A stretch of 64,000 nucleotides of DNA from a virus, in IMG/VR virus record IMGVR_UViG_3300045988_019421, positions 1 through 64,000 of that record. The stretch is one strand, 5' to 3'. The position numbers and the translations under genes are program-made. Under the pieces are notes generated by a model. That model saw only the letters and a program-made list of their open reading frames with translations, had not been told where the DNA came from and did not search any database. The first letter of the stretch is position 1, and every line of letters begins with the position of its first letter. This document shows, piece by piece, positions 6,710-61,840 of this stretch.

Positions 6710-6888
6710 TATCGGTTTTACAAATATAATCAATCTTATTATCAGAGCAAAGAAAATCTTACTGTTTTTCAGCATACGCAGAGAGCGATTCTAAGGCTCA
6801 CTGTTAAACGCAAGGCAAAAATAATATAGTTGTTCAGGTAAGTATAGTAAATCGTATAGAGACGAAATATCGGGCATTCTCGTTGATT

Positions 6889-11874: not shown

Positions 11875-11982
11875 AAAATTTGTTTTTATAAAGATTAATA
11901 CTAACAACAACAACAAGTTGTACAGGCTTGTTGTTTATTGCAAAGTTTCCAAATATAATAATTTTTTAAATCATAGCCAAAT

Positions 11983-13847: not shown

Positions 13848-13920
13848 TATTTCAAAGGTCGCTTATTGATTACTCTACAAAGATACTAATTTCTTTTATA
13901 ACTCCAAAGATTAGCATCTA

Positions 13921-23240: not shown

Positions 23241-24176
23241 TTAATGAGTATTGCTATAAGTTATATCATCTTTGAATTTATCCATTATATCATAAACTGA
23301 TATATTAGAACAATTCAATAGAGTATTAATAGTATTAGCAGTACGTTGGTCTTTACAAGCAATATTAAAATTATCATAATTGAACTTACGAACAACACTA
23401 GGACTAGCTTTATGAATATAATAAATATCCATAGCAGAGACATTGAAGTCTACAATATCATTTTCATATTTATCTAATACGTCTTTAAGAGATATGTAAT
23501 ATCTACAATCACCAATAGCTCTAGCAGCACTAGCAGTATCTTTAAATCGAATAAAGAAACCGGAATCAATAGAATTACGAATAGTTAGCCATTCAAAATC
23601 TAGCTCGTATTCTTTATATGGTTGAACATAAAGTCTCAAATCATAAAGAGCTCGTCTAAAAACTCTTAAAGCATGAGTTCTTTCAGCTAGTCTAGAAGTC
23701 TTTTCTTCCAATTGTTTATCGAGCTTATCAATATTTTCTTTAGAACGGCTTAATTGAGTATTGAGTTCCTCATTAACTTTAACAGTAGCATTAAGAGTAT
23801 CTTCGATATTCTCTAACTTAATAAGACTATTAGTTTTCTCTTCAATAATCTTATCCTTCTTTAGAATAATATCTTTATATTCATTTTCTTGCTCTTCGAT
23901 TTGATTACGTAATTCGGTAATTCTATTACCGCTATTAGTAAGTTGTCCTTCAAGAAACTTAATACGTTCAGTTAACTCATTATTATTAGATTTAAGAGAT
24001 TCAATCTCATCACAATCTTTAATAGTATAAGTATTGCCTAAATTAGCAATCTCACAAATAGAAGCAAGTGATTGAAAATCTAAATCAATAATACAACCGC
24101 TTTCTTCAACAATAACAACTCCATTAGTATGAGATACAAGAGTTAGATGCTTTTTATCAATTACAATAGCTTTCAT
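23241..24176 (-). CDS. hypothetical coiled-coil protein (311 aa)
   Basis: Central ~130-aa E/K/L/N-rich heptad-like region. Confidence 0.7.
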   Translation of the reverse strand: MKAIVIDKKHLTLVSHTNGVVIVEESGCIIDLDFQSLASICEIANLGNTYTIKDCDEIESLKSNNNELTERIKFLEGQLTNSGNRITELRNQIEEQENEYKDIILKKDKIIEEKTNSLIKLENIEDTLNATVKVNEELNTQLSRSKENIDKLDKQLEEKTSRLAERTHALRVFRRALYDLRLYVQPYKEYELDFEWLTIRNSIDSGFFIRFKDTASAARAIGDCRYYISLKDVLDKYENDIVDFNVSAMDIYYIHKASPSVVRKFNYDNFNIACKDQRTANTINTLLNCSNISVYDIMDKFKDDITYSNTH

Positions 24177-24226
24177 AAATACAAGTATTAATTATTAAGA
24201 ATTTAATTTTAAAAGTAGAATCTATA

Positions 24227-24412
24227 CTATAATAGTATAGTACTATATAGTAGGCGAATAAAACTAATAACTATTATATAAGTTATTATAGTTTGAACTA
24301 AAGAACGAATGATAATAACCTTCTTATAAGAAAGGTAATTAAACATTAAATAACATAGGCATATAACTATCCCAATTAAAGATAGAAATATATGGAACTG
24401 ATAATCTGTCAT
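24227..24412 (-). CDS. hypothetical small membrane protein (61 aa)
   Basis: Two hydrophobic segments. It is one of the first genes of the minus-strand block. Confidence 0.45.
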   Translation of the reverse strand: MTDYQFHIFLSLIGIVICLCYLMFNYLSYKKVIIIRSLVQTIITYIIVISFIRLLYSTILL

Positions 24413-24467
24413 GGTGAAGCAATATCAAATAATATTAAGAATATACATAAAGTAGATGCAACTATTA

Positions 24468-24581
24468 TTAAAGCGAATAATGTAGTAAGAAGAGTAATCT
24501 TAGTGTTAATAAGAAACTCACCGCATTTAATAAGTGCGATAATAAATAGTAATGCTAAGACAATAATATCGTAGTTAGACA
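24468..24581 (-). CDS. possible small hydrophobic protein (37 aa, below track cutoff)
   Basis: Translated codon by codon as MSNYDIIVLALLFISHLLNAVSFLLTLRLLFLLHYSL. It competes with the plus-strand track ORF 24392..24574. Confidence 0.2.
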
Positions 24582-24628
24582 TAATAGTATAAGTTAATAA
24601 GTGGATAAGATAGAGAGCAGAAGAAGTA

Positions 24629-24684
24629 CAGTAATGTCACTCCTTTATGGGGGAGAAAAGCGAGCTTTGCGAGCGGGACAAGTC
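24629..24684 (+). repeat. M10: composite motif copy, forward, at the edge of the divergent region
   Basis: cagtaatgtca ctcctttatggggga gaaaagcgagctttgcgagcgggacaagtc. Confidence 0.9.
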
Positions 24685-24949
24685 AAGCTACACAACAATA
24701 CAATTATTAATAATAGTACTATTAATAATGTTACCAATAATGTTACTTCTGTTATCAGTTGTAATACATAGTATTGTTATTACCGGAATCGCTCGAACTA
24801 CTATTGTCAAAGACAATGGTAGTGACGCTCTAATAATAACAACTATAATATAATAGTAGACAATATAGTAGTATTATTATTAAGACTATCAATCCGATAT
24901 AATAGTGAAACTATTATAGAGGACTAATAACAAAGACAATTACAATAAT

Positions 24950-24994
24950 AACGACCATAATTCTAACGACCATAATTCTAACGACCATAATTCT
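24950..24994. repeat. perfect tandem repeat, 15 bp x 3
   Basis: aacgaccataattct x 3. Confidence 0.95.
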
Positions 24995-25070
24995 AATACT
25001 AAGGACTAATATCATAGATATTAGGAACTTAGAACTAACAATAACAACCGACAATTAGGTTTATTATATA

Positions 25071-25170
25071 AATAGGATTCAAATCTTAACTATTAATATA
25101 ATAGAAACAACAGTATAGATTAATAGTATAGATTAATAGTATGATAATAAAATAGGATTCAAATCCTAAC
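25071..25170. repeat. 20-nt direct repeat pair exactly 80 bp apart
   Basis: aataggattcaaatcttaac (25071-25090) and aataggattcaaatcctaac (25151-25170). The second forms a small hairpin, taggattcaaatccta. Confidence 0.9.
25112..25148. repeat. tandem repeat, 13 bp x ~2.8
   Basis: agtatagattaat agtatagattaat agtatgataat. Confidence 0.85.
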
Positions 25171-25357
25171 TCCATAAACGAAGAGGTTTAGGTAGTAGTC
25201 GTAACATTGTAGGTTAGAGTAGTGAGTTAGAATGAAGGAGTAGAGGTGAGAGAGGGAGTAGTCCTACTACTTAACCAACTCATCACTCTTATCTACATCC
25301 TATTACTATTCTTACTCCACTACTATTATCTCACTCTATTGTCTACTCTACTATCTA

Positions 25358-25384
25358 GCTTAACGAGGAGCCTTAGCGACCCTT
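25358..25384. repeat. GC-rich box, copy 1
   Basis: gcttaacgaggagccttagcgaccctt. Copy 2 lies exactly 300 bp downstream. Confidence 0.85.
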
Positions 25385-25393
25385 CCGAGCATT

Positions 25394-25465
25394 GATATTG
25401 TCAATACTAGTAATAGTCTTGATACTATTGATACTATTGATACTATTGATACTATTGATACTATT
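25394..25465. repeat. tandem repeat, 9 bp x ~8 (last 5 perfect)
   Basis: gatattgtc aatactagt aatagtctt, then gatactatt x 5 (25421-25465). Confidence 0.9.
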
Positions 25466-25492
25466 TGTTGGTGTGATTGTATGAGCTTGCTC

Positions 25493-25511
25493 CTATTGTC
25501 TACGACAATAG
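25493..25511. repeat. perfect 8-bp-arm hairpin/palindrome
   Basis: ctattgtc tac gacaatag. Confidence 0.85.
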
Positions 25512-25543
25512 TCACCGACCTTGCGGACGGTCTTTTCGACCCC

Positions 25544-25602
25544 TATATATATATATATTATAATTATATACTAAAGTATATAATATATATATATATAATA
25601 TA
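25544..25602. repeat. 59-bp A/T-only quasi-palindrome (candidate DNA-unwinding element)
   Basis: tatatatatatatattataattatatac taaa gtatataatatatatatatataatata. Confidence 0.8.
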
Positions 25603-25607
25603 GACGC

Positions 25608-25626
25608 ATCTGATTCTGTATCAGAT
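25608..25626. repeat. 7-bp-arm hairpin
   Basis: atctgat tctgt atcagat. Confidence 0.8.
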
Positions 25627-25657
25627 TTTCTAACTCTGCTATTAGTCCATTACTCTT

Positions 25658-25684
25658 GCTTAACGTGGAGCTGCTGCGACCCTT
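25658..25684. repeat. GC-rich box, copy 2
   Basis: gcttaacgtggagctgctgcgaccctt. Confidence 0.85.
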
Positions 25685-25715
25685 AAAGTTTTGATGTGGT
25701 TTTGCAAGGGTTTTA

Positions 25716-25769
25716 GCTTATCAGTTGGTTAGCTTCGCTTATCAGTTGTAGCATTTCGCTTATCAGTTG
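25716..25769. repeat. iteron-like 12-mer x 3 at an exact 21-bp period
   Basis: gcttatcagttg at 25716, 25737 and 25758. Confidence 0.9.
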
Positions 25770-25787
25770 ACTAGTGTCGTTCCCGAC

Positions 25788-25818
25788 CCCGAAGGACGTG
25801 CCCGAAGGACGTGCCCGA
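25788..25818. repeat. tandem repeat, 13 bp x 2.4
   Basis: cccgaaggacgtg cccgaaggacgtg cccga. Confidence 0.9.
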
Positions 25819-25824
25819 TGGCGA

Positions 25825-25905
25825 GCATACAGTCTAGTAGTATTCTTGTAGGCATACAGTCTAGTAGTATTCTCGAACACGATTAGCAAGAGTATTCTTG
25901 AACAC
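25825..25905. repeat. 22-nt direct repeat (27-bp period) plus a reiterated 15-mer
   Basis: gcatacagtctagtagtattct at 25825 and 25852. agtattctcgaacac (25866) and agtattcttgaacac (25891). Confidence 0.9.
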
Positions 25906-25931
25906 ATGCTGAATAGTGTAACTTTAGTTTA

Positions 25932-25955
25932 GTAGTGGAGATTTCTCTCCACTAC
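25932..25955 (-). terminator. perfect 10-bp hairpin downstream of the orphan gene 25964..26668
   Basis: GTAGTGGAGA TTTC TCTCCACTAC. No clear T-run follows, so terminator function is uncertain. Confidence 0.45.
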
Positions 25956-25963
25956 GTAACTGG

Positions 25964-26668
25964 TTAGGCAGCACCCTCTACATCAGGTTGGTATTTAGCC
26001 AACATGTCAGCAACGAGCATTTCGTCAGCAAGGGACAACGTACGCATACTAAGTTCGTACGGGAAATACTCATAACGGTCGTGTTCATTAACACGTTCTT
26101 CACGAGCCATTTTAGCAGCAAATGGATTAACGAACACTTCACCTTGTGCAAGCACGTGTCCAAGCACGCTAATACGCGCCTTCTTGAAGATAACGTGCAA
26201 CACTGACAATGGAGCTGTCATAACAGCATTGGCAAGCATTGGTTCGCCCTGACCTTTGAGAATCGCAGATAGCTGAATACGAGTAGTAAAGATATTACGA
26301 GTTGTAGACTCGACATAAGTACCACTAGCAGCATCTTTAACAAACTGTGGAATGTTGCGATTAACAACCACAGTAAGCGCACCTGCATAACGACTACTAT
26401 TATCAATGATATTAGTAATCATCAAGCTATCGTGATTCTCAAAATCAGGACGGTCAAGCAACAGACGAACAATATCGTCTGCGTCCTGTCCCTGATACTC
26501 GGATAGGTCAACTATACGAGCATCAGTAGCTTCATCAGCAGCTTCATCAGCAGCATCATCAGTAGCAACTGTTTCAGCGTTAGCACTTGCTGCATCAGCA
26601 GCTTCTTTTGCAGCTTTTGCAGCTGCTTCGGCTGCTAATCTAGCAGCATCATTAACTTTAGTTCCCAT
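25964..26668 (-). CDS. orphan GC-rich acidic protein (234 aa) with an Ala/Glu/Asp-rich N-terminus
   Basis: Clean ORF isolated inside the repeat region. GC is about 45-48 percent from one line counted by hand, versus roughly 30-35 percent elsewhere. A perfect 10-bp hairpin lies just downstream (25932-25955) and duplicated 28-nt elements lie upstream. Confidence 0.7.
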   Translation of the reverse strand: MGTKVNDAARLAAEAAAKAAKEAADAASANAETVATDDAADEAADEATDARIVDLSEYQGQDADDIVRLLLDRPDFENHDSLMITNIIDNSSRYAGALTVVVNRNIPQFVKDAASGTYVESTTRNIFTTRIQLSAILKGQGEPMLANAVMTAPLSVLHVIFKKARISVLGHVLAQGEVFVNPFAAKMAREERVNEHDRYEYFPYELSMRTLSLADEMLVADMLAKYQPDVEGAA

Positions 26669-26744
26669 AATAAAAATGAAATTAAATGTTATAAATCAGT
26701 CGGCAACTGTTCAACCAATGTGCATCCCGACTACACGCACAATG

Positions 26745-26808
26745 GCAATATGTTTAAAGTCATTTGGTTTGATAGTAACTGCAATATGTTTAAAGTCATT
26801 TGGTTTGA
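26745..26808 (-). promoter_or_regulatory. 28-nt element x 2 (36-bp period) upstream of the orphan gene; candidate promoter/operator
   Basis: gcaatatgtttaaagtcatttggtttga at 26745-26772 and 26781-26808. These lie 77-140 nt upstream of the 26668 start on the minus strand. Confidence 0.4.
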
Positions 26809-26991
26809 TTAAGCCAATAGTTCTTTAACAACATCGTTAGCATCTAGTATAAGTACTAACACTACTAATAGTATTAGAAAGCTATTCACATGGTTATCAT
26901 ACAACTTAATGTAACTTAGATGTATGAATACTGGCACACCTAGCATACTTAATGCTAAGTGTACCACTTTAATCTTATCACTCATATTCAT
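26809..26991 (-). CDS. hypothetical small membrane protein (60 aa)
   Basis: Hydrophobic segments HLALSMLGVPVFI and FLILLVVLVLIL. Confidence 0.4.
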   Translation of the reverse strand: MNMSDKIKVVHLALSMLGVPVFIHLSYIKLYDNHVNSFLILLVVLVLILDANDVVKELLA

Positions 26992-27056
26992 ACGTATCTA
27001 GTGTAATAACGTGAACAAAACTTGTCGTAGGTTTCACCTGCACGACCGTACTTTCT

Positions 27057-27149
27057 CTAATCCTTCTTCTGTTTATTAACCATAGACAGATAAGTAACAG
27101 TAGTCATAGCTACTGCTATTGATAACAACAATAGAAATATCATAAGCAT
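27057..27149 (-). CDS. possible 30-aa single-pass membrane peptide
   Basis: Hand-translated as MLMIFLLLLSIAVAMTTVTYLSMVNKQKKD. Confidence 0.2.
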   Translation of the reverse strand: MLMIFLLLLSIAVAMTTVTYLSMVNKQKKD

Positions 27150-27182
27150 AAGTATTTAATTAAACATTTATATTAATAGTAA

Positions 27183-27205
27183 GGTGACCACTAGATAGGG
27201 TCACC
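27183..27205 (-). terminator. hairpin overlapping the stop of 27191..27358
   Basis: GGTGACC / GGTCACC 7-bp stem with a 9-nt loop. Confidence 0.3.
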
Positions 27206-27358
27206 AAACACTACACCAACAATACCACATACCATTGCTATAAATCCAATGTTTGCAACAGTAAGAGAAGCAACACCTAGACCAATAGCAACAGTAATCA
27301 TACCACCAAATAGTGCCATAGCTCCAATAACAAACGCACCTTTACGCATCTTATTCAT
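27191..27358 (-). CDS. possible 55-aa Gly/Ala-rich membrane protein
   Basis: Hand-translated as MNKMRKGAFVIGAMALFGGMITVAIGLGVASLTVANIGFIAMVCGIVGVVFGDPI. The third copy of the 28-nt element lies 31 nt upstream. Confidence 0.4.
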   Translation of the reverse strand: MNKMRKGAFVIGAMALFGGMITVAIGLGVASLTVANIGFIAMVCGIVGVVFGDPI

Positions 27359-27389
27359 ATCTTATATCTTTAGTAATTAAACATTAATA

Positions 27390-27418
27390 GCAATATGTTT
27401 AAGGTCATTTGGTCTTGA
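27390..27418 (-). promoter_or_regulatory. third copy of the 28-nt element, upstream of the small membrane-protein ORFs
   Basis: gcaatatgtttaaggtcatttggtcttga. It lies 31 nt upstream of the 27358 start on the minus strand. Confidence 0.4.
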
Positions 27419-27481
27419 CGGGGGTATTGGAATTGGTTTGAGAGTAGGGGGCTATCAGGGTAGGAGCTTCACCTCGATAAA

Positions 27482-27502
27482 AATATACTCACGAAAAATA
27501 TT
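27482..27502. repeat. small stem-loop with an ACTCACGAAA loop, copy G
   Basis: aatat actcacgaaaa atatt. Confidence 0.35.
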
Positions 27503-27529
27503 ATTTTGTGGGGCAGAACTAACACTAGC

Positions 27530-27565
27530 ATTTCTAATTCTATTTCTAATTCTATTTCTAATTCT
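27530..27565. repeat. perfect tandem repeat, 12 bp x 3
   Basis: atttctaattct x 3 within a T/C-rich, G-poor tract. Confidence 0.95.
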
Positions 27566-27946
27566 CTCCCTTCTAATAGTTCCAATAGTAGTTCCAACAG
27601 TAATTCCAGTCCTATTCCTAAGCTCATACACATTAGTACTTCTAACAATAGTTCCTAATTCTTTCTTTCTAGTACTTCTAATTCCCTTTGTATCTATTGT
27701 TGTTAGTAGTCTAACTCTTCTTATACAATAATTATCTTATTAGTTAGTCCTATTAGTCTAATCAATTCCTTTAAGTCCTTAATTAGTCTTACTTATATTA
27801 TATAGTATTAGTTGTCTACTGGGTCTTATTGTGTAAGCCCTTTCTCCTCTTCTATCGAAGAGTTCGAAGATTTAGCATTAGGATTGTAAAAATAGAATGG
27901 TAAGATTTAGTATATATTTTGGTTAAGTATTAGATTTGTATTAGAG

Positions 27947-27982
27947 TGTGTACTAATGTGAACTAGTGTGAATAGATGTGAA
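27947..27982. promoter_or_regulatory. TGTGWA hexamer x 4 at an exact 10-bp period
   Basis: tgtgta at 27947; tgtgaa at 27957, 27967 and 27977. Helically phased, ~160 nt upstream of the first plus-strand gene. Confidence 0.35.
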
Positions 27983-28034
27983 TTATACAGCGAATACAAT
28001 TCTAAAGGTTTTTTAACGAGTTAGATATTGATAG

Positions 28035-28051
28035 TACGAATATTATTCGTA
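28035..28051. promoter_or_regulatory. 17-bp perfect palindrome upstream of the plus-strand block
   Basis: tacgaata t tattcgta. Confidence 0.35.
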
Positions 28052-28141
28052 TACTTGTACTATTAATGACTGGTGCTTATATTACTCTTAGTAATGCTAG
28101 TCAACTTAATTAATAGTATTAACAATCTAATTAAAGTAATC

Positions 28142-28783
28142 ATGTTACACTTAGAGAACAAAACTAAAGGAGAAACTTTCCTAGTTCCTCAACACATTGC
28201 AGAAATTGATTTCCAATATGTTTCTGATAGAGTTAAGAATATTAATCCTTTCAAACATTTTGGTATTGTTGCTATTGTTCAGACTGCCAAACTTCGTGAG
28301 ATTATTAATCCTGACTTGAAAGGTACTGGTAATACTAAGTTTATATTAGTTAAAGCTAATTACGGTGACGATGTTAAAGAGATAGATAGAGCTTTTCTTA
28401 ATCGTTTCTTATATGTTGCTCCGTCTGACGTATTTACTGGTATAGATTGTAATCCTCGTAGTAATGAGCTTACTCCTTATAATCTTGCTGAATTTATTCG
28501 TAGCGACCAAGACTTAAATCTTAGTATTGCTCGTGGTGAGATATTCCGTAAAGTTGTAAGTGGTTCAGTTATTAGCCTTCTCGGTAACGATGTTACTCCG
28601 GCTACTGTTGAAAAGAAAGGAGATAATGGTAAGTTGATTACTACTATTGCTGAAACAGTAGTTTGTATTGGTTATAAGATTGTTCGTCTTTCTGATATTC
28701 AAGGTCAGAATACTATCGAAGGTCTTCCTGTTAGCGGTAAACCGCAGAAATTTATAGTAGCTACTAATTTACTAAATATATAA
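28142..28783 (+). CDS. hypothetical protein (213 aa), first gene of the plus-strand block
   Basis: The track ORF starts at GTG 28073. I prefer ATG 28142 (MLHLENKTKGE...), because the upstream part is hydrophobic filler. Confidence 0.65.
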   Translation: MLHLENKTKGETFLVPQHIAEIDFQYVSDRVKNINPFKHFGIVAIVQTAKLREIINPDLKGTGNTKFILVKANYGDDVKEIDRAFLNRFLYVAPSDVFTGIDCNPRSNELTPYNLAEFIRSDQDLNLSIARGEIFRKVVSGSVISLLGNDVTPATVEKKGDNGKLITTIAETVVCIGYKIVRLSDIQGQNTIEGLPVSGKPQKFIVATNLLNI

Positions 28784-28788
28784 ACTAG

Positions 28789-29334
28789 ATGCCTTCTATT
28801 GATTTAAAAGAGAAAAAGGAGTTATTAGTAACTCGTCCTGATATTATTGGTTTATTAGGTGTTACACCTCTTGAAGCTGAAATAATAGATGATATTATAG
28901 ATAATATCGAAGACCAAATTGTTGATAGAATTAAAAGTCTACAACGAGTTTCAATTCCTTTTATTGGTGGATTTATTGTTAATGAAGCCAAGTTAGATGC
29001 AATAGAACATCACCCCGTAATGAAAGCTAAAAGGCAAGAACTTACTAATGAAGAATATTGGAAATTTAAAAAGAGCTTAGTTGCTACTCGAAGGATTCAA
29101 CGTAGTAAATTTAGAAGTAGAACTTCGATAATATCTCGAACTGTTAGACTTAATCGTAAGTTAGCCGCAAGGAAACTTAGAGAGTTTAATCAAGATGAGA
29201 GGTCTTTTAAATTATATATGTACTTCTTTAGTAAGATGAAGCCAGTTAATGATTCTGATTACTATATTGAACTAAGAAATAATAAAGGTTATGATTACGA
29301 AGATTGCCCCTTTGGATTTAACAGGTATGATTAG
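28789..29334 (+). CDS. hypothetical protein (181 aa)
   Basis: ORF track; starts 6 nt after the upstream stop; basic C-terminal half. Confidence 0.65.
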   Translation: MPSIDLKEKKELLVTRPDIIGLLGVTPLEAEIIDDIIDNIEDQIVDRIKSLQRVSIPFIGGFIVNEAKLDAIEHHPVMKAKRQELTNEEYWKFKKSLVATRRIQRSKFRSRTSIISRTVRLNRKLAARKLREFNQDERSFKLYMYFFSKMKPVNDSDYYIELRNNKGYDYEDCPFGFNRYD

Positions 29335-37395: not shown

Positions 37396-37691
37396 CGTAC
37401 CCATAGAATCGACGTAGATAGCATTTCCTTCGCCTCTGTTGCATTTACCCTATAAAATGGATGAACTGTAAAGGAAAGCATTAAAATGCCGTGACGGGTC
37501 TTAAAATGGCTCATTCTTTTGCCCTGTATCGAACGCAAAATTTCTGCTAATAAGATTAACTCTAGTAATACTTAAATACGAATACGGGCAATTCTAAACC
37601 TAATAATAAGGGTATTCAGACTAGTAAGAGTTTGCTTTCTCATATTATTAGATTACATTTGAGTGAAAGTAATAATCAAAACATATTTATT

Positions 37692-54500: not shown

Positions 54501-56466
54501 ATATATTCAAGATTCATTTAAAGGACTTGTTAATTCTACTGGTTCTTTATATAATATATTTGGTGGTACTGTTAAGAATAAGACACAGGTAAGATTCCCG
54601 ACAGCTTTATATGGTATCTACAATTCATTTAGTTTAAGTTCAGGTTCTAATGTTACTTTCCCAATCCACAACTCAATGTTTAGTAGATTGAAGAACTCAT
54701 TAAAATATATAACTGGACAACAAGCTATTAATGAAAGTACTTTAGGAAGTTTTCAAGGATTCACTAAACAGTTCATTAAAGAAGGAGAAGAAACATTTCC
54801 TTATGATGTATTTACTGGTTGTAGTGCTATTGTTGAAATACCGGGATTCTTTGCTAATCTTGTTCTTCCTACAAATACTGTTGTTGAACTTCCTCTTGAT
54901 TCATTTAAGACTAATTACAATCTTACTAACATAGCAAACTTATACTTTGATATGAAGAATTGTAAGTATAGTCTTACTGGTAAAGGTTTCTCTAATTGTA
55001 AAATAGTTAATGCTTATAGATGTTTCTCTGAAACAGAGAATACTTACGTTAAGAAAGGTTCTGTTCCTTATGGACTATTCTATATGGAAGCTACTAATAA
55101 TTATAGTTGGAAAGGCTGGAATGAAACCGATGCTTCTACTAATAGTATAAATGAGAACTACGGTATTGATGAACATGGAGAATGGATTCCTGATGAACAA
55201 GCACCAATGCCTACTGAAATCACTTATAATAAACAGAGAACTCTTCCTAGAAAGACAATAGTTAATATGTCTTATTGTTTAGAGAGATTCCAAAGTACGG
55301 AAGCACAGGCTTATACTATGAATTATGGTAATCTTACTCCAAGTAATTATGGAGATATTATAGTACCTAATGAAAAGTATAATCCAGTTAAGTATATTCT
55401 TAATCCTAATTATGACCCTAGAGAATATCTTGATGAAGAGCAGACAATGATTAACTATAATAGAGATATTCATAGAGTAATCATAAATAAAGATTATGAT
55501 AAATATGAATATGCTTGGAATGAATATGTCTACGATGGACTTAGTGGACTTGAAGATATTATATTAAATAGTAGTCTTTATACAGCTGTTTCAAATGGAA
55601 CAATAAATTGTTCTCCTACTATACCTGATGTATTTAAAGATACTGCTGCTTCAATTGCTCCACCTAGTTCTGTTCATGCTAATAGAAAAGTATTAAATTA
55701 CTTATGTTCGCCTGACTTATTCTATTATTGTACTAATGGGACTAATATGGTTATCAACGGTGTATTTAGTGGTAGCGGTAGACCTAATGGAAACCCAACA
55801 TACGATTACTTTAATTATGGTATTCGTGGTCGTATTCCAACTAACTTATTTAAACCGGTTAGTAATGTTACTAATTTATCAATGACATTCTATCGTTGTC
55901 CTTTAATTCTTCCATATAAATGGAATAATTCCACAGGGGATATTGGTGAAATGTTCTCTAAGGAAATGTTCGCAGGATTAACTAAATTAACTAATATATC
56001 TTATATGTTCTATTTCTGTGTAATTCCTGCTGATGTTATTGTGCCTGTTGAATTTGTAATTGATTGTATTAACTTACAGGATATATCTTGTTTGTTCTTA
56101 GCAGCACAATTTGAATCAACTGCTAGTCAAGCACAACAAATAGACGATAATATATTCGCTAAGAATGTCAATCTAAAGAATATTAGTTATGCTTTTGCTA
56201 GTGGACAAAACCAAGGAGATTGGTCAGATAGAAGTCCTAAGAAGATTAGTTCTACATTGTTTAATGCTAATAAACATAAACAACTTACTAATGTTACTGG
56301 TGTATTCTATAATGCAACTTCTACTACTGGTAGTGTTCCTGAATTTTGGAATTGGCTAAATAGTCTATCCTCTGTTAATAGAGCGAATGTATTCTATGCT
56401 ATGCGTAAAGCTAATCTTACTAATGGTAATAGTGTTCCTAGTGGATGGAATACAGGTATGGTATAA
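48592..56466 (+). CDS. giant tail fibre / receptor-binding protein (~2624 aa) with LamG-like, CotH-like, LRR and BspA-type repeat regions
   Basis: The track start is TTG 48586; I prefer ATG 48592 (MADNIKRY...). It has a Gly linker GGGGSGGGGGATG. KIYLGCD...FADVNFYDIKLFRVPANDKEIV is LamG-like. LGIYSFNLGRGAYYNMGF and NKWFIRFYDMDTGNGLDN are CotH-like. LRRs run from about 52.9 to 53.6 kb (LKDLNISSS, LALLNITNS, LDRLDFSGC, ITELNLSNL, LRTLNISNS). FFVGCSNLKRV, FTGCSAIVEI and FSNCKIVNAY are BspA-type. Confidence 0.65.
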   Translation: MADNIKRYNPKTGNWDISSSGKATGIVVEDPRLIDPEVAEEGVTGESLNDVLVRHEEELKKHGGYIAWLAEHGGGGSGGGGGATGDKITLTNGNIVKEGNINYLYSTVTTNIKLEYLITSSKNNKRYFITVTLDGNNIIEGKEAWTNTPGTLNIPQLDKFSANSNHSVVITASDTDGFSAESYLLNIVEASIKLTSTVSGNTATVGLDYFFTYSIISKIIGSDVNLVVTNVTNGATKTIELGKTTSTAPKQVNVNLWELGNIIAGSSYTIQAQAFTSMNEATVQSDKVTNRVVVEDGINLVVLVEGITSKAEVDAGVERTKFSQSSNVSFAFTPYLAGVSLIYYAVRIEHNGITKDIGYFDEGNYNDNQYVQRGKQQVFSYAIPTEGDVIGNWNITLRCWSEKGNPVTDTVLACEVVSSSQALIADQNPNSSRYASWHVRQESFPQVSTTKVWTSNEPTFTAPGSITPSGAITNLNVYNTNGVLSGFLTENGQSMLRISGEAYGVIDVQPFKDDITTLNNWSRQGFGLSCTFKSDIHPFSKRTIFFIGDYNTDEQFSEGIKVGLEDIIWSYTDGNIKETISCKIQQNVINTVDFIVNKNQGKMIVGIFINGILNAAREIKTDFTWKTNSKIYLGCDISNSGQIQNFADVNFYDIKLFRVPANDKEIVINAMNSRAKATLLSDGSVDFTEYNRMKLKNFFSTSDSEPHSILWDDINQTYASVNFNSLISDTTRVLPVDIMLINCANTGFTRAIFEEIGGQNNNWYSGCTMSYFSPTSGKSSSEYTTDVSVSKQGTSTLNNLIKNLEIRFDKMLKDDDGGNLDYELFQPRETWFPERQFTLKADVVDSAHANNASIGKWINDNSDFLFEKTPPMEQLESHRPVDTRDRTVKDKVTIKQTLEGFPIILLIQFDGEETQTMLGIYSFNLGRGAYYNMGFRFLKDFTTKIKNTAGEYVDNKLPAFVTSYHTYAQDELFGNIDQRKVHSYEFGENANVIVDGEKTLPLALFMQDDLSIIKHVGEFKYNGGNWLEPSAPVTDDNVWRALQELFSIFAQMTSSTVKKYIWNEASGGYEETAGEYPAQSSWSTLAAELDTKFSIKNAYSYLLVCVKYGLVDSLGKNLTLVCYDVGGVNKWFIRFYDMDTGNGLDNVALESVAKTAWLDTFSNNDKNDVNSLIITKNAADGGYDTYSSRMWDVLRDTIFANTGIFDSSLETLWDLWRNNATICKDINDYIDNYFAAQTKDCGELLFNYDYNVKYLTAYVGESGGQPSYANIEFLHGTRVEYVRDWMKKRVWFFDGVFKYSNAANIQPYNNKGTFSAGGAEATNPKLIITSNCPAIFVVNIGNTTDTRYFLEEGKPTEIRLSPISSFNTQITINNTPQINDIEGLGGMRFQRFMSTMKLPSFSKLDLSSVDTLSDSPIPFETVFVNDEGYSDVRHIDLSNTKFWSGNIGQGTFTVNIEKYTKLKDLNISSSIVTSISLPNASLALLNITNSAVEGISLVNQPFLDRLDFSGCKRLKTVTIDSCDKITELNLSNLRDLHTIRITSCPNLKSIICTNNINLTTFNVSNCNNVEIINVSQCTNESLTVYIVGVPNIKELNVSSTNTPNDIQVASSLPNLRTLNISNSQVSAIQYGNAAIPTYKENKIFDISKLNLTSLSVQNAKGVHYFKFDNNRNTPFNVGGSFFVGCSNLKRVFGHIKLNGTSIFAQCGNFYIHEPKEKVKGITPDYGGEWFGSDTSTEEGKTAWDNNTDLGTNFTIGTTNCTSMFNATNCSIYDVYYFLYKCYDVTTLDSCFASAKNIKWDLLDSPRRNMFNHCTKVVTMNSLFWGLQEQDFKILTSTYDFGSTEHNGLFSPLVSLQAMDSIFYFSGTRYTSPAFLAKFKGNVPSKLKRLSIFSTGTVKFVDNINNCPSDSTIDEHLVNADCGTLLANLPDLEYLNTMFNGSNIDFNQITDEDVEDEVKYCPLFYKNTKLKYIQDSFKGLVNSTGSLYNIFGGTVKNKTQVRFPTALYGIYNSFSLSSGSNVTFPIHNSMFSRLKNSLKYITGQQAINESTLGSFQGFTKQFIKEGEETFPYDVFTGCSAIVEIPGFFANLVLPTNTVVELPLDSFKTNYNLTNIANLYFDMKNCKYSLTGKGFSNCKIVNAYRCFSETENTYVKKGSVPYGLFYMEATNNYSWKGWNETDASTNSINENYGIDEHGEWIPDEQAPMPTEITYNKQRTLPRKTIVNMSYCLERFQSTEAQAYTMNYGNLTPSNYGDIIVPNEKYNPVKYILNPNYDPREYLDEEQTMINYNRDIHRVIINKDYDKYEYAWNEYVYDGLSGLEDIILNSSLYTAVSNGTINCSPTIPDVFKDTAASIAPPSSVHANRKVLNYLCSPDLFYYCTNGTNMVINGVFSGSGRPNGNPTYDYFNYGIRGRIPTNLFKPVSNVTNLSMTFYRCPLILPYKWNNSTGDIGEMFSKEMFAGLTKLTNISYMFYFCVIPADVIVPVEFVIDCINLQDISCLFLAAQFESTASQAQQIDDNIFAKNVNLKNISYAFASGQNQGDWSDRSPKKISSTLFNANKHKQLTNVTGVFYNATSTTGSVPEFWNWLNSLSSVNRANVFYAMRKANLTNGNSVPSGWNTGMV
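50224..50237 (+). repeat. M19: weak motif copy, forward
   Basis: ttctttatagggga. Read as FFIGD. Confidence 0.3.
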
Positions 56467-56520
56467 CAAAAAGTTGATAATAGTATTATGTAATTAAACA
56501 AAATTTAGTTTCTTGTAGCG

Positions 56521-56546
56521 TCCCCCATAAAGGAGTGAGTATTAAC
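56521..56546 (-). repeat. M20: extended motif copy, reverse, intergenic
   Basis: tcccccataaaggagtgagtattaac. Confidence 0.9.
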
Positions 56547-56557
56547 AGTAATCACAT

Positions 56558-56571
56558 CTCTTTAAGGGGGA
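56558..56571 (+). repeat. M21: motif copy, forward; inverted partner of M20
   Basis: ctctttaaggggga, directly followed by ATG 56572. Confidence 0.6.
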
Positions 56572-56892
56572 ATGTTACAAAGACCAATTAATAATCATTT
56601 AAAAGTAATTATCATGGATAGTCGTATTTATAACAGAGCTAATGCAGCTAATAGTTTACAGATTTCTATAATGGGTAAAGTTGATGCTGTTGCAGAGTTT
56701 TCTATTCCTAATGGAATGGGTGGTAAAGAACCTTTCTTATTAAAGAATATAACCGAAGACCCAATACAAGTAGAAGTAGTTCTTGCAGGTATGGAAGAAC
56801 CTATTACTACAACTATTTATTCCGGTTGGAATGTTGAGTTAGTTAAACAAGTTAATAACGCTGTTGCTGATACGTTACAATATGGGTACTAA
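56572..56892 (+). CDS. hypothetical protein (106 aa; alternative start at 56614)
   Basis: ORF track. The ATG directly abuts forward motif copy M21. Confidence 0.55.
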   Translation: MLQRPINNHLKVIIMDSRIYNRANAANSLQISIMGKVDAVAEFSIPNGMGGKEPFLLKNITEDPIQVEVVLAGMEEPITTTIYSGWNVELVKQVNNAVADTLQYGY

Positions 56893-59800: not shown

Positions 59801-61222
59801 AATAAGGCACTAGGAAATCTAATATACGACCAAAGAGATAATGGTAGTACTACTAGTTTCGCCATTATGCCAGTAAATATTAATGATTCTACAAATAACA
59901 AAATTGCTTATCAAGCACGAAATGCAAATGGGATTACTTATATTGATGGTATTAGAAATGAATATATAGAAAGTTATAGCCTTGAAAATATAATTCATAA
60001 TATTACTATTACAAATCCTGATGTTAGTAATAAAACAGTTGCTCTTGGAGCTAGTAATAAATCTACTGCTGATTGTTTTGCTAAAATGTCTCTCTACGAC
60101 TTTATGCTGTTTGACGAAATCTCAACGGACGATAAGATTAAAGAGCTGAACGAGTATGTAGGTATTGAAGCTAAGGTAGAATTACCACCTTATTACTGGG
60201 ATACTTATGGTAAAACCAATCTCGATGCAGATAAAGCTACTATTCAACAAAGAGGTGTAGCCGTAGGTGATTATGATTTAACTAATTATAATCATGCTTA
60301 CGAAGGTATGAGTGGATATAATGGTTATCCTGTTGTATTTGGTATTGGTAAAACTTATGGAGGAATGCCAAGTACTGATGATTTTGCATATACTGTTTCT
60401 CCAACTACTGTAAATGTTACCAAATTTAATATTACTCATGGTTTTATTTACAGTTATTTAAAGCATAATGGAGAATTAGAAACACAGAATTCAGATTATC
60501 CTTCGTATAAGATAAAGGTTACTGGACTTGAAAAAGGTTTTGGATTACATTATTCTTATCTTAAGAATCCTTCTGATGCTAATCTTAGTGCATTTGGTAT
60601 AGGTACTGATGGTACTTATACTATTCCTAAATCTTTTGCAAGTGATGGAAGTTTGATAAATAACAATGTTTGGATAGGTTTTATATTTACTGGTACTGCA
60701 CCTGAATCATGTAATGTTACTATCGAAGTTCTTCCTGAATATGAAAATGGTTTAGCTTATGATGGAATAGAAGATTTTAGTGATAATAAGAACATTCCTA
60801 TATTTACAGATTTTACTGCTATTATAAAAAGAATTGATTTAGATGCTAAGAATAATAATTCTTCTGTAATGTTTAAAGGAAATAAAATCTATGAAAGTGG
60901 TATTGGAAATGGTTTTATTTTAGATTATCATTATGATAGTAAAAACTATGTTTATAGTTATGGTAAAGTAAATCGGATAGAACGAGATAATTCTAAGATT
61001 ATTTATTTAACTCCTGAAAGTTATAATGGTAATCCTATTATAAAAGGTGAAAATGGAGATAATCTAGGATTAATACTTGGTAAATATTGGAAAGGAATAA
61101 TCTATAAAACAATTCTATATTCTAAGACTATCTCGTTACTAGAAATTAATTTCCTAAAGAACCTGATGGAAAAGGATGAAATAATTGATTTAAATAACCC
61201 AATATTTATAAAAAATGAATAA
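56882..61222 (+). CDS. large tail fibre-like protein (~1446 aa) with repeated LamG/concanavalin-like modules
   Basis: The track start is TTG 56864; I prefer ATG 56882 (MGTNTGLG...). Recurrent modules: FVTDGINDMII, LLLDGITDFGKV, YQFDGVDDFVTIP, LAYDGIEDFSDN. The N-terminal segment (PPELKARLIGVWDNYGKKNTDAD) is duplicated internally (PPYYWDTYGKTNLDAD). Confidence 0.65.
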   Translation: MGTNTGLGIGIGIPFKNNALGGDKPYFPPELKARLIGVWDNYGKKNTDADRNIIKNKIPNAGGDLEILNAAYKLNSGFGEYKEDFTSWRIYPNIEVTDNVITTNGNFNSTWFIYKHSNENEINEINIKVSGIPEGGKILYFYIPDETATMPVSYNISKDGVYHLPKSKLSSNRVSVGFTVSSSYDWNNIRIEQLSDFGGAFVTDGINDMIISQKTLQEMGVTKELTIVSMIHQISWRGSASIPLTNYIRNGDTFIRNSISNIGKTGIYGYTCFNIKNVNSSASKVINNILGDKNDYIVEYRGDILSERFSVQGYIDGNGNILETSSVAHYWTFAVLGKATEDEINLIIGNYNLDRSLKPDILCNIGKQGITNDNHADFNNKLIDYSGNNRDIQMNNLAWKGGSGIAAKKFETIKDYSIIPDEGLQELTIYNEFSFKIKSIRYADRYWAVQSLNKTNISYPVTIITDKDIIWRNALNYTDADGVKGSVRKETNVPANTPTQVFIYGFNDFDISDDYTKVNCVAYAARKDITEFTVTFIPSYKGGLLLDGITDFGKVTGMPVYKDYTFIIDRKFLNETFANQVCLASKSKVAVEGENGGAFTVDNISVNSIINPYSFYKTTSLPGLNTFDRQIVFQSKYKYLDKDIAAGTATDSDTLWLGTFRDNDSRFANVAIYSLMSFPYSMSEFLIERQLKKHKLGTLYPDMVEFRPVIKANANYKITYYQIDSTNTWKSIKVGDYIVIGAKLAFQITFDNDASELKEVVSPQLSGIIVEKRPSNPGYNIYSYITSKSPQKINITIDEYIRYEDIVQPYPVIFQITDRNTNQRYSWGDKIKVGSSIRLSQSEKLNLLSGLYSIKSYEYEGETYSYNQLTNLNIILTKQSISLSCNKTWLLDDNEPKCILSPRLLRIPNSSYKILGHIPDISGHGNHGKINNSAYAEGSGVNEDGSYQFDGVDDFVTIPTVAGKQVLMKLNWQNKALGNLIYDQRDNGSTTSFAIMPVNINDSTNNKIAYQARNANGITYIDGIRNEYIESYSLENIIHNITITNPDVSNKTVALGASNKSTADCFAKMSLYDFMLFDEISTDDKIKELNEYVGIEAKVELPPYYWDTYGKTNLDADKATIQQRGVAVGDYDLTNYNHAYEGMSGYNGYPVVFGIGKTYGGMPSTDDFAYTVSPTTVNVTKFNITHGFIYSYLKHNGELETQNSDYPSYKIKVTGLEKGFGLHYSYLKNPSDANLSAFGIGTDGTYTIPKSFASDGSLINNNVWIGFIFTGTAPESCNVTIEVLPEYENGLAYDGIEDFSDNKNIPIFTDFTAIIKRIDLDAKNNNSSVMFKGNKIYESGIGNGFILDYHYDSKNYVYSYGKVNRIERDNSKIIYLTPESYNGNPIIKGENGDNLGLILGKYWKGIIYKTILYSKTISLLEINFLKNLMEKDEIIDLNNPIFIKNE

Positions 61223-61321
61223 ATGAAAATAATGCCTTATAAACTACTTAAAGTAGTTTATATAATACTTGCTATAATTGCAGTAGTTATGTATACATTA
61301 AGTTTAATATTTAATATTTAA
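61223..61321 (+). CDS. possible 32-aa membrane peptide
   Basis: Hand-translated as MKIMPYKLLKVVYIILAIIAVVMYTLSLIFNI. It starts 1 nt after the upstream stop and contains a 10-bp palindrome. Confidence 0.3.
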   Translation: MKIMPYKLLKVVYIILAIIAVVMYTLSLIFNI

Positions 61322-61326
61322 AGATT

Positions 61327-61635
61327 ATGATTGATTACATTGTATTTCCTGTTGCTGATATAGATGAAGAGAAGTCAGCAAAGATTGACGAACTTAATTT
61401 AGTTCCTCGTAGTAATGTTAGTAAAGATAAAGTATTAATGAAGTGTCAACATTATGAAAAGGTGTTTCCTGAAAAAGTAACTAGAATAGTTACTACTGAT
61501 GAAGAAGGATTGGAAGTTATCAATATCGAATATCCTTATGAAACTTATTCTAATGAAGCACTTTCTACTTTATTGTCAAGTCCTGAATGGAATCCTAAAG
61601 AAGATGAGGTAATAGAAGATTCCCCCATAGAGTAG
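61327..61635 (+). CDS. hypothetical acidic protein (102 aa) ending inside motif copy M22
   Basis: ORF track. The last codons DSPIE-stop are the motif. A strong terminator follows. Confidence 0.6.
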   Translation: MIDYIVFPVADIDEEKSAKIDELNLVPRSNVSKDKVLMKCQHYEKVFPEKVTRIVTTDEEGLEVINIEYPYETYSNEALSTLLSSPEWNPKEDEVIEDSPIE

Positions 61636-61644
61636 TGACATTAC
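61621..61644 (-). repeat. M22: extended motif copy, reverse
   Basis: tcccccatagagtagtgacattac. It shares the GTGACATTAC tail with the reverse complement of M10. Confidence 0.7.
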
Positions 61645-61661
61645 TTTTATTGCTTAACTCT

Positions 61662-61695
61662 AAGCCCTGCTTATAACAAGTAGGGCTTTTATTTT
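61662..61695 (+). terminator. intrinsic terminator
   Basis: AAGCCCTGCTT ATAAC AAGTAGGGCTT (11 bp, one G-U), then TTTTATTTT. Confidence 0.85.
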
Positions 61696-61787
61696 GTTCA
61701 TACTATATCTAACTTTTAATAAAATTATTACTTATGGCTAAAATAGATTAATGGTCGAACTTCTTATATTATCTTTTGCTATGAGTG

Positions 61788-61803
61788 TATAGTAGCTACT
61801 ATA
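61788..61803. promoter_or_regulatory. 16-bp perfect palindrome upstream of 61841..62557
   Basis: tatagtag ctactata, 38 nt before the ATG. It uses the same GTAG/CTAC words as the 25.2 kb polarised arms. Confidence 0.3.
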
Positions 61804-61840
61804 AGATATTCTTAATTTATTAATCTAAACCTTATTTATT

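Follow-up and report, generated by a model that had tools for sequence, protein, structure and literature searches.

A repeat-rich, largely non-coding region at the gene divergence point of a crAss002-like Jahgtovirus genome and its possible role as a central control region

What does a largely non-coding, repeat-rich region of about 3.5 kb do at the point from which the genes of a crAss-like phage diverge? No other phages of the human gut are as abundant as the crAss-like phages. The region in question lies at positions 24582-28141 of the IMG/VR virus record IMGVR_UViG_3300045988_019421, of which positions 1 to 64,000 were analyzed; this whole stretch of 64 kb is referred to as the window. 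An earlier note, made from the sequence alone, had regarded the region as a candidate for a replication origin with early promoters, for non-coding RNAs, or for both. The answer that we favor, and to which we give a slightly better than even chance, is that it is a central control region, in which a leftward transcription unit (25932-27418), an origin module (24583-25931) and the divergent leader of the structural operon (27419-28141) lie side by side.

Repeat density, coding status and conservation

Over the region the window shares 90-93% identity with Bacteroides phage crAss002 (MN917146) and the uncultured phage cr107_1, both of which are members of Jahgtovirus (Crassvirales, Intestiviridae, Churivirinae). 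By this sequence identity the window belongs to a crAss002-like Jahgtovirus of the Intestiviridae. In crAss002 the + block contains the genes for terminase, portal, capsid, tail and virion RNA polymerase, and the - block contains the genes for DNA polymerase, helicases, primase, SSB, RecT, ligase and related functions. The region therefore sits exactly at the divergence of the two blocks: the replication genes lie directly to its left and the structural genes to its right, with the terminase genes 4 kb away on that side. Fifty related IMG/VR loci (designated by L numbers) were fetched, and the 30 that span positions 24000-28800 were aligned with MAFFT. The total length of the equivalent stretch is constant at 4.4-5.4 kb in all 30 of them.

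The repeat density described in the earlier note was reproduced with Tandem Repeats Finder. Fourteen of the 26 merged arrays of the window (score >=40) fall within the region, which makes up 5.6% of the sequence. Dinucleotide shuffles of the region (n=100) gave 0.15 arrays on average and never more than 2, and the array count of the region is unsurpassed by any other 3.56-kb stretch of the window. The alignment was used to assess the coding status. A third-position substitution excess of 0.6-0.75 was detected only in 25964-26668 on the - strand and from 28142 onwards on the + strand. A weaker excess in the right phase is present in 26809-26991 and 27057-27149, both on the - strand, and the excess is absent (0.34-0.41) from 24583-25963 and 27359-28141. 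Only one solid gene and two or three tiny membrane-peptide open reading frames (ORFs) thus interrupt the non-coding sequence of the region. This bears out what had been read from the single sequence, namely that 24582-25963 and 27359-28141 hold no convincing ORF and that 25964..26668 is a solid gene. Of the three or four tiny membrane-peptide ORFs proposed there, two show the periodicity, and a third (27191-27358) turned out to be an accessory cassette that is absent from most relatives. The claim that genes everywhere else overlap or are a few nucleotides apart was too strong, as gaps of 200-620 nt also occur elsewhere (56466-56864, 61222-61841), although the two largest gaps are indeed those of the region.

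Unrecognised genes in the gaps, encoding small proteins or read through recoded stop codons, would be a quite different explanation, and we regard it as highly improbable. ORFs of 40-97 aa do exist on both strands, and small ORFs were annotated in the crAss002 and cr107_1 records. Stop-codon reassignment has been reported in some crAss-like lineages. The lack of a third-position excess in either gap argues against such genes, however, and the annotated small ORFs disagree between the records, with overlaps between opposite strands. The longest ORF (27438-27731) results from translating pyrimidine repeats, and the neighboring genes use standard stops. Searches for tRNA and tmRNA genes (ARAGORN) and for Rfam 15 families gave no match at the gathering score, only chance-level matches with E values of 0.3-3.7.

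The comparison with the equivalent region of relatives, which had been suggested earlier, revealed conserved non-coding blocks in a mosaic pattern. The conserved blocks are 24625-24700, 25700-25790, 26669-27056, 27390-27520 (97-98%) and 27750-28141 (91-97%), and several non-coding blocks are 93-98% conserved, at or above the level of the flanking genes. The blocks 24850-25150, 25519-25710, 25790-25900, 27150-27373 and 27525-27700 are replaced or vary in length. On this pattern of sequence conservation the region is non-coding and under selection. The strand-polarised tracts noticed before are evident in the composition: the + strand is purine-rich at 24300-25260 and pyrimidine-rich at 25260-25400 and 27500-27800. 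Several perfect hairpins had been noticed as well, and the searches for direct and inverted repeats found them at 24801-24819, 25493-25511, 25608-25626, 25932-25955, 27184-27206 and 28035-28051. The cumulative G-C curve of the window is flat at about 24000-26000 and reaches its minimum at 27856, and the skew is near zero across 24000-28000.

The origin-like module

The center of the module is a (TA)n-rich palindromic tract at 25544..25602, a candidate DNA-unwinding or cruciform element. Its arms of 27 and 26 nt are AT-only, with 19 nt perfectly complementary, and its 6-nt center is CTAAAG; the A/T-only palindrome of the earlier note therefore holds for the arms and not for the center. An AT-only run of 25-35 nt is present at this place in 30 of 30 aligned relatives, although three or more non-homologous versions of the surrounding 200-450 nt exist. 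Two of the flank versions border the tract with alternating CG/CA runs, which by their sequence are Z-DNA-prone. These are the crAss002-type and the 'TTGTTCAGG'-type flanks (e.g. L001 4650-4760), with alternating purine-pyrimidine runs such as TACGCACGCGTACACGCACGTATATA and GGTACGCGCGCAAGTG; the version of the window is without them. In the window-type version only, a hairpin ATCTGAT-TCTGT-ATCAGAT followed by TTTT can be read from the + strand at 25608..25626.

At a distance of 114 nt from the tract lie three iteron-like repeats GCTTATCAGTTG (25716..25769) with a spacing of 21 nt, which corresponds to two helical turns. Three of the four matches to this repeat in the window fall in the array (0.44 expected). 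The repeats are invariant in relatives, and their core CTTATCAG is present in 2-4 copies per relative's aligned stretch. Helically phased direct repeats and an adjacent AT-rich candidate DNA-unwinding element, two of the features by which an iteron origin is recognized, are thus found together. Between the tract and the phased repeats there is a slot that the window leaves unoccupied and in which relatives carry a 59-aa ORF, another small ORF or a RepL-family gene. The RepL gene (Pfam PF05732, 30.6 bits, cutoff 20.3) was found in this slot in the relatives L021 and L040, and in both its stop codon adjoins the first GCTTATCAGTTG repeat. An in-frame stop makes the L040 copy a pseudogene, and the L021 copy is intact. 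The RepL cassette (equivalents of 25518-25711) encodes 171 aa and has two palindromes TTACACGCAAATCTGTGTAA upstream as its own putative operators. Among the sequence features, the retention of the AT-only run despite replacement of its flanks and the presence of RepL in the slot of L021 and L040 argue most strongly for a function.

Further repeats surround this core. A 31-nt direct repeat, TCT.GCTTAACG.GGAGC...GCGACCCTT (family D9), occurs as copy a at 25354..25384 and copy b at 25654-25684; the copies are 81% identical, lie 300 nt apart, and bracket a 9-mer array, a perfect palindrome and the (TA)n core. The array, ATACTATTG (TGATACTAT) at 25404..25465, has 6.9 units. Its copy number differs among relatives, and its core TGATACT is found in 2-8 copies per relative's aligned 4.8-kb stretch. 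The palindrome CTATTGTC-TAC-GACAATAG at 25493..25511 has 8-bp arms and a 3-nt spacer, is separated from the (TA)n tract on its right by 33 nt and is nearly invariant in relatives. It is the second copy of the site ATTGTC-N3-GACAAT, the first copy of which, ATTGTC-AAA-GACAAT at 24803..24817, lies 690 nt further left. The site has 2 matches in the 64 kb (0.04 expected), both in the region, and 37 of 52 Jahgtovirus loci contain 1-3 copies of it, always in this region.

To the left of the array lies a long imperfect inverted repeat of about 180 nt, composed of a purine-rich arm (25184-25261) and a pyrimidine-rich arm (25262-25361). As + strand RNA it folds at -60 kcal/mol (z -2.8), and the - strand gives z -1.1. 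Compared with separately shuffled arms, the z scores are -4.3 (+) and -2.5 (-). No compensatory changes were found in the long hairpin (25165-25365), for which about 92% identity and the tolerance of G-U pairs make a weak test. Next to the first replication-block gene, just upstream of it on the - strand, lies a conserved GC-rich element (24625..24700). It consists of one copy of a 14-mer that is dispersed over the genome, CTCCTTTATGGGGG (24640-24653), and of GCGAGC repeats after it, and is mostly invariant in the 30 relatives. The AT-rich stretch that follows (24708..25171) is hypervariable, poorly conserved and has many gaps in relatives. Its lineage-specific tandem repeats include a 15-mer x3.2 (24949-24996), a 13-mer x2.4 (25112-25142) and the AAATAGGATTCAAATCYTAACT pair (25070, 25150). 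At the other end of the module, variable-number tandem repeats occupy 25788..25873, with 0-5 copies of a 13-mer whose unit depends on the lineage and 1-3 copies of an approximately 27-mer.

The (TA)n tract also raises the question of whether the region holds the genome ends or a packaging signal, that is direct terminal repeats or a pac site with the tract as the cut site. Of the 29 contig ends of relatives within the fetched loci, at least 10 stop in or at the tract, and a Nextera adapter was found on two. The two public records of Jahgtovirus were linearised within the region, crAss001 has short terminal repeats, and Carjivirus communis (C. communis), the prototype crAssphage, has a high-coverage region rich in read ends. 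We nevertheless consider this explanation improbable. The crAss002 paper, which does not discuss the region, reports a PhageTerm prediction of headful packaging with permuted ends and no fixed ends. A pac site would usually be expected near the small-terminase gene, and the terminase genes are 4 kb away on the right. The clustering of contig ends was set aside as evidence for a terminus because the ends lie in (TA)n runs or other repeats, which are typical breakpoints of coverage and assembly; other contig ends in the region are scattered over other repeats. The Nextera transposase adapter CTGTCTCTTATACACATCT... found at the end of L047, in the (TA)n tract, and at the end of L003 (~24850-24910) is adapter contamination. 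The tract itself would explain the breaks observed in Jahgtovirus assemblies.

The proposed leftward transcription unit and the probable divergent leader

A scan for E. coli-type promoters found 22 sites where 21.4 were expected and is therefore uninformative. The Bacteroides sigma-A consensus (-33 TTTG / -7 TAnnTTTG) has 5 full matches in the window and none in the region. Early promoters of crAss-like phages have no known motif (10.1101/2020.03.07.982082). A 29-nt motif, D4 (GCAATATGTTTAAAGTCATTTGGTTTGAT on the + strand), was found on the - strand in two tandem copies at 26745..26809 and in a third copy at 27390..27418. It has 3 matches in the 64 kb (0.00 expected), all in the region. The tandem copies are 97-100% conserved and lie 77-141 nt upstream of the start codon of the gene at 25964..26668. 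The third copy precedes the leftward cluster, about 35 nt from the start of its first gene irrespective of the cassette. D4 is thus always located about 35-140 nt upstream of leftward genes and in sense orientation to them, whatever cassette follows, and as judged from its position it is a plausible promoter or operator.

The solid gene at 25964..26668 on the - strand encodes a 234-aa protein, a homologue of crAss002 gp80, with an acidic low-complexity N-terminus and a probable SSB-like OB-fold core. The protein has no sequence match in Pfam, PHROG or the PDB, SSB profiles included, and its family comprises about 44 clusters at 50% identity. The assignment comes from structure prediction and profile comparison. 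The AlphaFold (AF2) model has a predicted local distance difference test score of 87.8. A Foldseek search of BFVD returned crAss-like proteins (E 1e-12 to 1e-6), one of them annotated as SSB, and then phage SSBs (E ~1e-4). The structural matches in the PDB are almost all SSB or PriB but weak (E 3e-3, template modeling score 0.2-0.4). Alignment with gp02 of C. communis, a 'putative ssb', gave an hhalign probability of 95% and E 3e-8. The phi14:2 protein g004 was considered as a further homologue and rejected (hhalign probability 0.2%). In the N-terminal part of the gene (26521-26640) a 12-nt tandem repeat encodes an acidic alanine/aspartate-rich segment, the length of which varies among relatives. 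The contigs L021 and L051 break within or beside this repeat, and tblastn matches often begin at residue 38-51.

Eight nucleotides past the stop codon of the SSB-like gene a 10-bp hairpin with a TTTC loop is present on the - strand (25932..25955). It occurs as three alleles in 49 sequences, 100% of the cells are paired, and compensatory double changes are found at 3 of the 10 pairs; slid controls showed none. It is the only structure in the region for which covariation support was obtained. The stem is not followed by a U-tract, the - strand continuing with TAAACTAAAGTT, and the terminator scan did not list the hairpin. It is therefore terminator-like and not a textbook terminator, and on its sequence we regard it as a candidate terminator-like or RNA-stabilising element. 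Between the third D4 copy and the SSB-like gene lie the membrane-peptide ORFs, all on the - strand. The 60-aa ORF at 26809..26991 corresponds to crAss002 gp81 and the 30-aa single-pass ORF at 27057..27149 is conserved in all cassette variants; both show third-position periodicity in the right phase. The 55-aa ORF at 27191..27358 is the accessory cassette, which is bounded by the repeats TAATTAAACATT (27157, 27374). It is missing from crAss002 and most relatives, and an unrelated 71-aa ORF takes its place in L004, L015, L023 and L030. The third D4 copy and the 30-aa peptide gene stay put in every cassette variant. As a general motif TAATTAAACATT was rejected: it is not significant with one mismatch allowed, and its three exact copies (24336, 27157, 27374) lie in or at the edge of the region. 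From the order D4, genes, hairpin we infer a transcription unit, for which D4 would be the promoter.

To the right, a nearly invariant G-rich block (27419..27520, 97-98% conserved) adjoins the third D4 copy. It has a significant fold on neither strand. The repeat TTCRYCTCGATAAAAATATAYTCAYGAAAA within the block bounds a pyrimidine-rich insertion of about 190 nt in 9 relatives. The insertion, with duplicated TTCRYCTCGATAAAAATATAYTCAYGAAAA at its ends, is located at the equivalent of 27497 (L008, L012, L018, L028, L030, L031, L035, L043 and similar) and, judging from these repeats, looks like the footprint of repeat-mediated gain or loss of a cassette. An apparent 10-nt insertion at 27468-27477 proved to be an alignment artefact. 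The G-rich block is followed by a variable tract (27525..27700), pyrimidine-rich on the + strand, with 6- and 12-nt repeats (TTCTAA, TAGTTCCAACAG), and by a probable leader of the structural operon on the + strand (27750..28141), which is 91-97% conserved without codon periodicity. The leader contains TGTGAAY repeats with a spacing of about 10 nt, or one turn (27947-27982), a perfect palindrome TACGAATA-T-TATTCGTA with 8-bp arms (28035-28051) and a lone Bacteroides -7-like TAGATTTG (27931-27938). The segment 27860-28141 folds at -61.7 kcal/mol on the + strand (z -2.4), and the - strand gives z -1.2. Folding of 27415-27700, 27405-27525, 26669-26810, 26992-27056 and 24600-24700 was not better than that of shuffles. 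From these features 27419-28141 may be regarded as the promoter and leader of the structural operon.

The exchange of cassettes suggests yet another explanation, in which the region would be a hyperplastic recombination hot spot without a dedicated origin. Promoters and accessory cassettes, possibly for anti-defence or superinfection exclusion, would reside there, and the repeats would be by-products of slippage and exchange. Alternatives with fixed boundaries fit this well: the 55-aa peptide, the 71-aa protein or nothing at one site, a gp79-like ORF, a small ORF, RepL or nothing at another, and the 190-nt insertion at a third. The cassettes are often bordered by short direct repeats, and repeat copies vary from 0 to 5, with different units at one site. 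What slippage leaves unexplained is the retention of the AT-only tract in every flank version, the invariant phased repeats and palindromes that are unique to the region, and the recurrence of the modules in other subfamilies. The total length, moreover, stays at 4.4-5.4 kb. For these reasons we regard a hot spot without an origin as unlikely, and recombination enters the central control region as one of its properties.

The mechanism proposed for the central control region is as follows. D4, first as one copy and then as two tandem copies, would act as the promoter or operator of the leftward unit 25932-27418. It would drive one to three membrane-peptide genes and the SSB-like OB-fold protein, and the unit would end at the covarying 10-bp hairpin. 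A sequence-specific DNA-binding protein would occupy the GCTTATCAGTTG repeats, the ATTGTC-N3-GACAAT palindromes and the 9-mer array. This binding, together with negative supercoiling from divergent transcription on both sides, would open or extrude the (TA)n palindrome, and the phage's own helicase, primase and DNA polymerase, whose genes lie directly to the left, would load there. The 180-nt inverted repeat may be a single-strand priming or structural signal, and 24583-25931 must also carry the promoter of the replication block. The stretch 27419-28141 would supply the operon of structural genes with its divergent upstream region and a structured leader. The region as a whole would, in addition, be a recombination hot spot in which small cassettes and repeat copy numbers are exchanged between strains. 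Of this scheme, the anatomy, the lack of coding sequence, the pattern of conservation, the covariation of the hairpin, the polymorphism of the cassettes and the correspondence to C. communis are observed, whereas we infer that the module is active as an origin, that D4 is a promoter and which proteins bind.

Several observations weigh against the central control region as proposed. No initiator gene lies beside the phased repeats in the window or in crAss002, and RepL is absent from both (tblastn). RepL may be just one more cassette in the hot spot. The RepL of P1, moreover, acts on an origin inside its own gene. For DnaA boxes (<=1 mismatch), 16 matches in the window compare with 20 expected, and the 2 that fall in the region are both inexact. 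The period of the main array, 9 nt, does not match the helical turn, and several arrays differ in unit and copy number in the manner of neutral minisatellites. D4 fits the Bacteroides -33/-7 consensus poorly. The simplest account of the contig ends clustered at the (TA)n tract is an effect of sequencing or assembly, and the headful prediction for crAss002, with no fixed ends, counts here as well. The skew check suggested in the earlier note did place the minimum of the cumulative curve of the window at the region, but the inflection cannot be separated into a replication cause because it coincides with the switch of gene orientation. The proposal of an origin with early promoters, non-coding RNAs or both has thus gained an origin-like anatomy, signs of selection, the RepL polymorphism and a correspondence with C. 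communis, and it has found no backing in DnaA boxes.

Some features lie outside the region or are dispersed over the window. The 14-mer CTCCTTTAYGGGGG has 12 matches (<=1 mismatch) in the window, where 0.01 are expected, in both orientations. They are located at 4429, 6891, 8781, 9926, 14854, 16127, 21225, 24640, 29976, 31983, 37940 and 56522. Many copies are inside genes, including those for primase, helicase and DNA polymerase, and the crAss002 genome has 12 exact copies. The copies at 21225(-), 24640(+) and 31983(+) carry a GCGRA-repeat extension. By its sequence the 14-mer might bind a protein or form a small hairpin. The Bacteroides consensus, TTTG-N17-23-TAnnTTTG, is fully matched at sites that include 6721-6751(-), 11950-11981(-), 13878-13908(-) and 37631-37661(+). 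Those at 11950 and 13878 are intergenic and precede the SSB and RecT homologues, which suggests that some of the replication genes are transcribed by the host polymerase. At the left border of the region (24227-24582) two hydrophobic - strand ORFs (61 and 57 aa) overlap a + strand ORF at 24392-24574 (gp77 in the crAss002 annotation). The substitution periodicity there is weak (0.40-0.41), and therefore none of the three ORFs is confirmed.

Counterparts in other Intestiviridae and known systems

Several modules of the region recur in other genera. In Rudgehvirus jaberico (Crudevirinae) an SSB-like homologue with 48% identity takes the same position relative to the divergence point. Its gaps measure 740 and 690 nt, and the 690-nt gap contains an inverted repeat with purine and pyrimidine arms and five TATAAC-N5-GTTATA palindromes. 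The 16-mer TTTAGCTTATCAGTTG (16/16) lies just downstream of the Rudgehvirus SSB-like gene, in the same orientation relative to the gene as in the window. In C. communis RepL is located at the divergence point and gp02, the ssb-like gene, 0.3 kb further on. The 506-nt gap upstream of repL contains an inverted pair, a 9-mer array, GCGRA repeats and a 29-nt AT-only tract; the inverted pair is related to the GC-rich element 24625-24700 and is also found in a Rudgehvirus gap. A 660-nt gap 0.5 kb downstream of gp02 carries a purine/pyrimidine inverted repeat and four TATAAC palindromes. Just past it, an array of TGATACTNN (2430-2488) matches the 9-mer array of the window (blastn-short E 1e-6), and two copies of CTTATCAG directly follow gp02. 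The 58-aa gp05 annotated at 2374-2550 of the C. communis record BK010471 (L062) coincides with the TGATACTNN array and, on this overlap, is probably not a gene. The purine/pyrimidine inverted repeat folds below arm-shuffled controls in three genera, with z scores of -1.7 to -5.7, weakly on one C. communis strand, and the better-folding strand is not the same across the three. Gaps of 1.5 kb occur at the divergence point of cr11_1 and ctcc615, with AT-only tracts of 59 and 150 nt and tandem repeats, and cr3_1 has a 1-kb gap with a 24-mer x4.7 array. A long, repeat-rich non-coding region with an AT tract is therefore present in most of the Intestiviridae genera sampled. For distant relatives in IMG/VR, the family alignment gave no usable conserved stretch, and searches with single distant proteins gave nothing new.

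For C. communis, two origins have been predicted in a 2024 preprint from OriFinder, GC skew and nanopore data, one directly upstream of repL and one about 2.6 kb downstream, with near-zero skew between them and a maximum of nanopore coverage (PMC10983915). By their positions, these sites correspond to the two gaps described here. The C. communis sites and the region of the window both lie at the divergence point of replication and structural genes, with near-zero skew and a homologous SSB-like gene. In both genomes one gap, of 0.5-0.8 kb, adjoins the structural block, and another lies downstream of the cluster that contains the SSB-like gene. Common to them are also the 9-mer TGATACTNN array, the long purine/pyrimidine inverted repeat, arrays of palindromes, an AT-only tract, CTTATCAG past the SSB-like gene, and a hairpin of the form CYCC...GGGG accompanied by GCGRA repeats. 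The two differ in that RepL occupies the divergence point in C. communis, whereas the window has small membrane-peptide genes there. In Jahgtovirus RepL was found in two relatives only and is placed differently. The AT tract lies upstream of repL in C. communis and downstream of the SSB-like gene in the window, the palindromes are TATAAC-N5-GTTATA in the one and ATTGTC-N3-GACAAT in the other, and the non-coding stretches are about twice as long in the window. The C. communis origins are themselves predictions and not mapped. In the literature we found no experimental mapping of an origin for any crAss-like phage, and the C. communis prediction is the sole origin proposal that we found.

With these comparisons the search can be narrowed, in cultured crAss002 and its host B. 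xylanisolvens, to a core of about 400 nt (25400-25800), which holds the 9-mer array, the palindrome, the (TA)n tract and the three phased repeats, and to the 29-nt D4. As the modules are found in more than one subfamily, what is learned there should carry over to the prototype crAssphage. The region is also the main site of strain-level variation in cassettes and repeats and might be used in strain typing. Should the origin reading be wrong, the region would still be the best candidate for the regulatory hub of the phage.

A more far-reaching idea is that a family-wide set of non-coding modules in the Intestiviridae jointly forms a lytic origin and an early-transcription switch, following an N4-like logic that evolved independently. 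We consider this improbable. The set would comprise the 180-460-nt inverted repeat with its purine and pyrimidine arms, the arrays of lineage-specific palindromes, the TGATACTNN array, the AT-only cruciform tract and the CTTATCAG sites past the SSB-like gene. It is an equally improbable part of the idea that extruded hairpins or the cruciform, stabilized by the SSB-like protein encoded next to them, would serve as start sites of the virion RNA polymerase or primase, and that the 14-mer CTCCTTTAYGGGGG would act in the same system. Phage N4 has hairpin promoters that are used by its virion RNA polymerase. Like N4, the phage of the window has a virion RNA polymerase, short, perfect and conserved hairpins (8-bp stems, 3-nt spacer) and an SSB-like gene nearby. 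The fold of the crAss virion polymerase is, however, unrelated to that of the N4 enzyme, and a promoter role of the hairpins would be purely by analogy.

The crAss-like Cellulophaga phage phi14:2 offers a different precedent. In this phage abundant non-coding RNAs of unknown function are made early from the intergenic regions g004-g005 and g005-g006, and the study detected no motif shared by its early promoters (10.1101/2020.03.07.982082). Its intergenic DNA of about 1.7 kb, near the start of the record and among small genes, is transcribed above most genes from the earliest time point. The non-coding stretches of the window could likewise be templates of abundant early non-coding RNAs made by the virion RNA polymerase. 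Such a role is compatible with an origin, and we hold it to be possible, though clearly less probable than the central control region. The purine/pyrimidine strand polarity suggests a transcription bias, the hairpin at 25184-25361 folds better as + strand RNA, G-U pairs counting, and so does the + strand of 27860-28141. Set against this are the lack of Rfam matches and of covariation in the long hairpin, the inconsistent strand preference over three genera, and the lack of a significant fold in the invariant segment 27405-27525. Hypervariable units and copy numbers would also be odd for a structured RNA. Both phages have a long non-coding stretch, but phi14:2 belongs to the Steigviridae and has only two tandem-repeat arrays in it. 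Its intergenic region shows no DNA similarity to the window, and its neighboring protein g004 is unrelated. The statement in the earlier note that long non-coding regions occur in some crAss-like genomes thus agrees with phi14:2, without sequence homology between the regions. We found no RNA-seq study of a Jahgtovirus phage genome, the crAss002 co-culture study reporting host genes, and on the function of such regions only the C. communis prediction and the phi14:2 RNAs were found.

T4-type phages have hyperplastic regions in which regulatory cassettes are repeated between small ORFs. The region resembles them in that small ORF cassettes are swapped, gained or lost at short repeats upstream of start codons (TAATTAAACATT). 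It differs from them in being mostly non-coding, with conserved blocks that are not linked to ORFs, and has no sequence relation to them. Iteron-type origins are known from lambda (ori), P1 (oriR and oriL) and theta-type plasmids (oriV). Unlike these, the window has several unrelated repeat families with strain-variable units, and it has neither an adjacent cognate initiator gene nor an enrichment of DnaA boxes. As in these origins, short direct repeats are clustered by an easily melted AT-rich tract together with palindromic sites, beside the replication genes and with transcription on the flanks.

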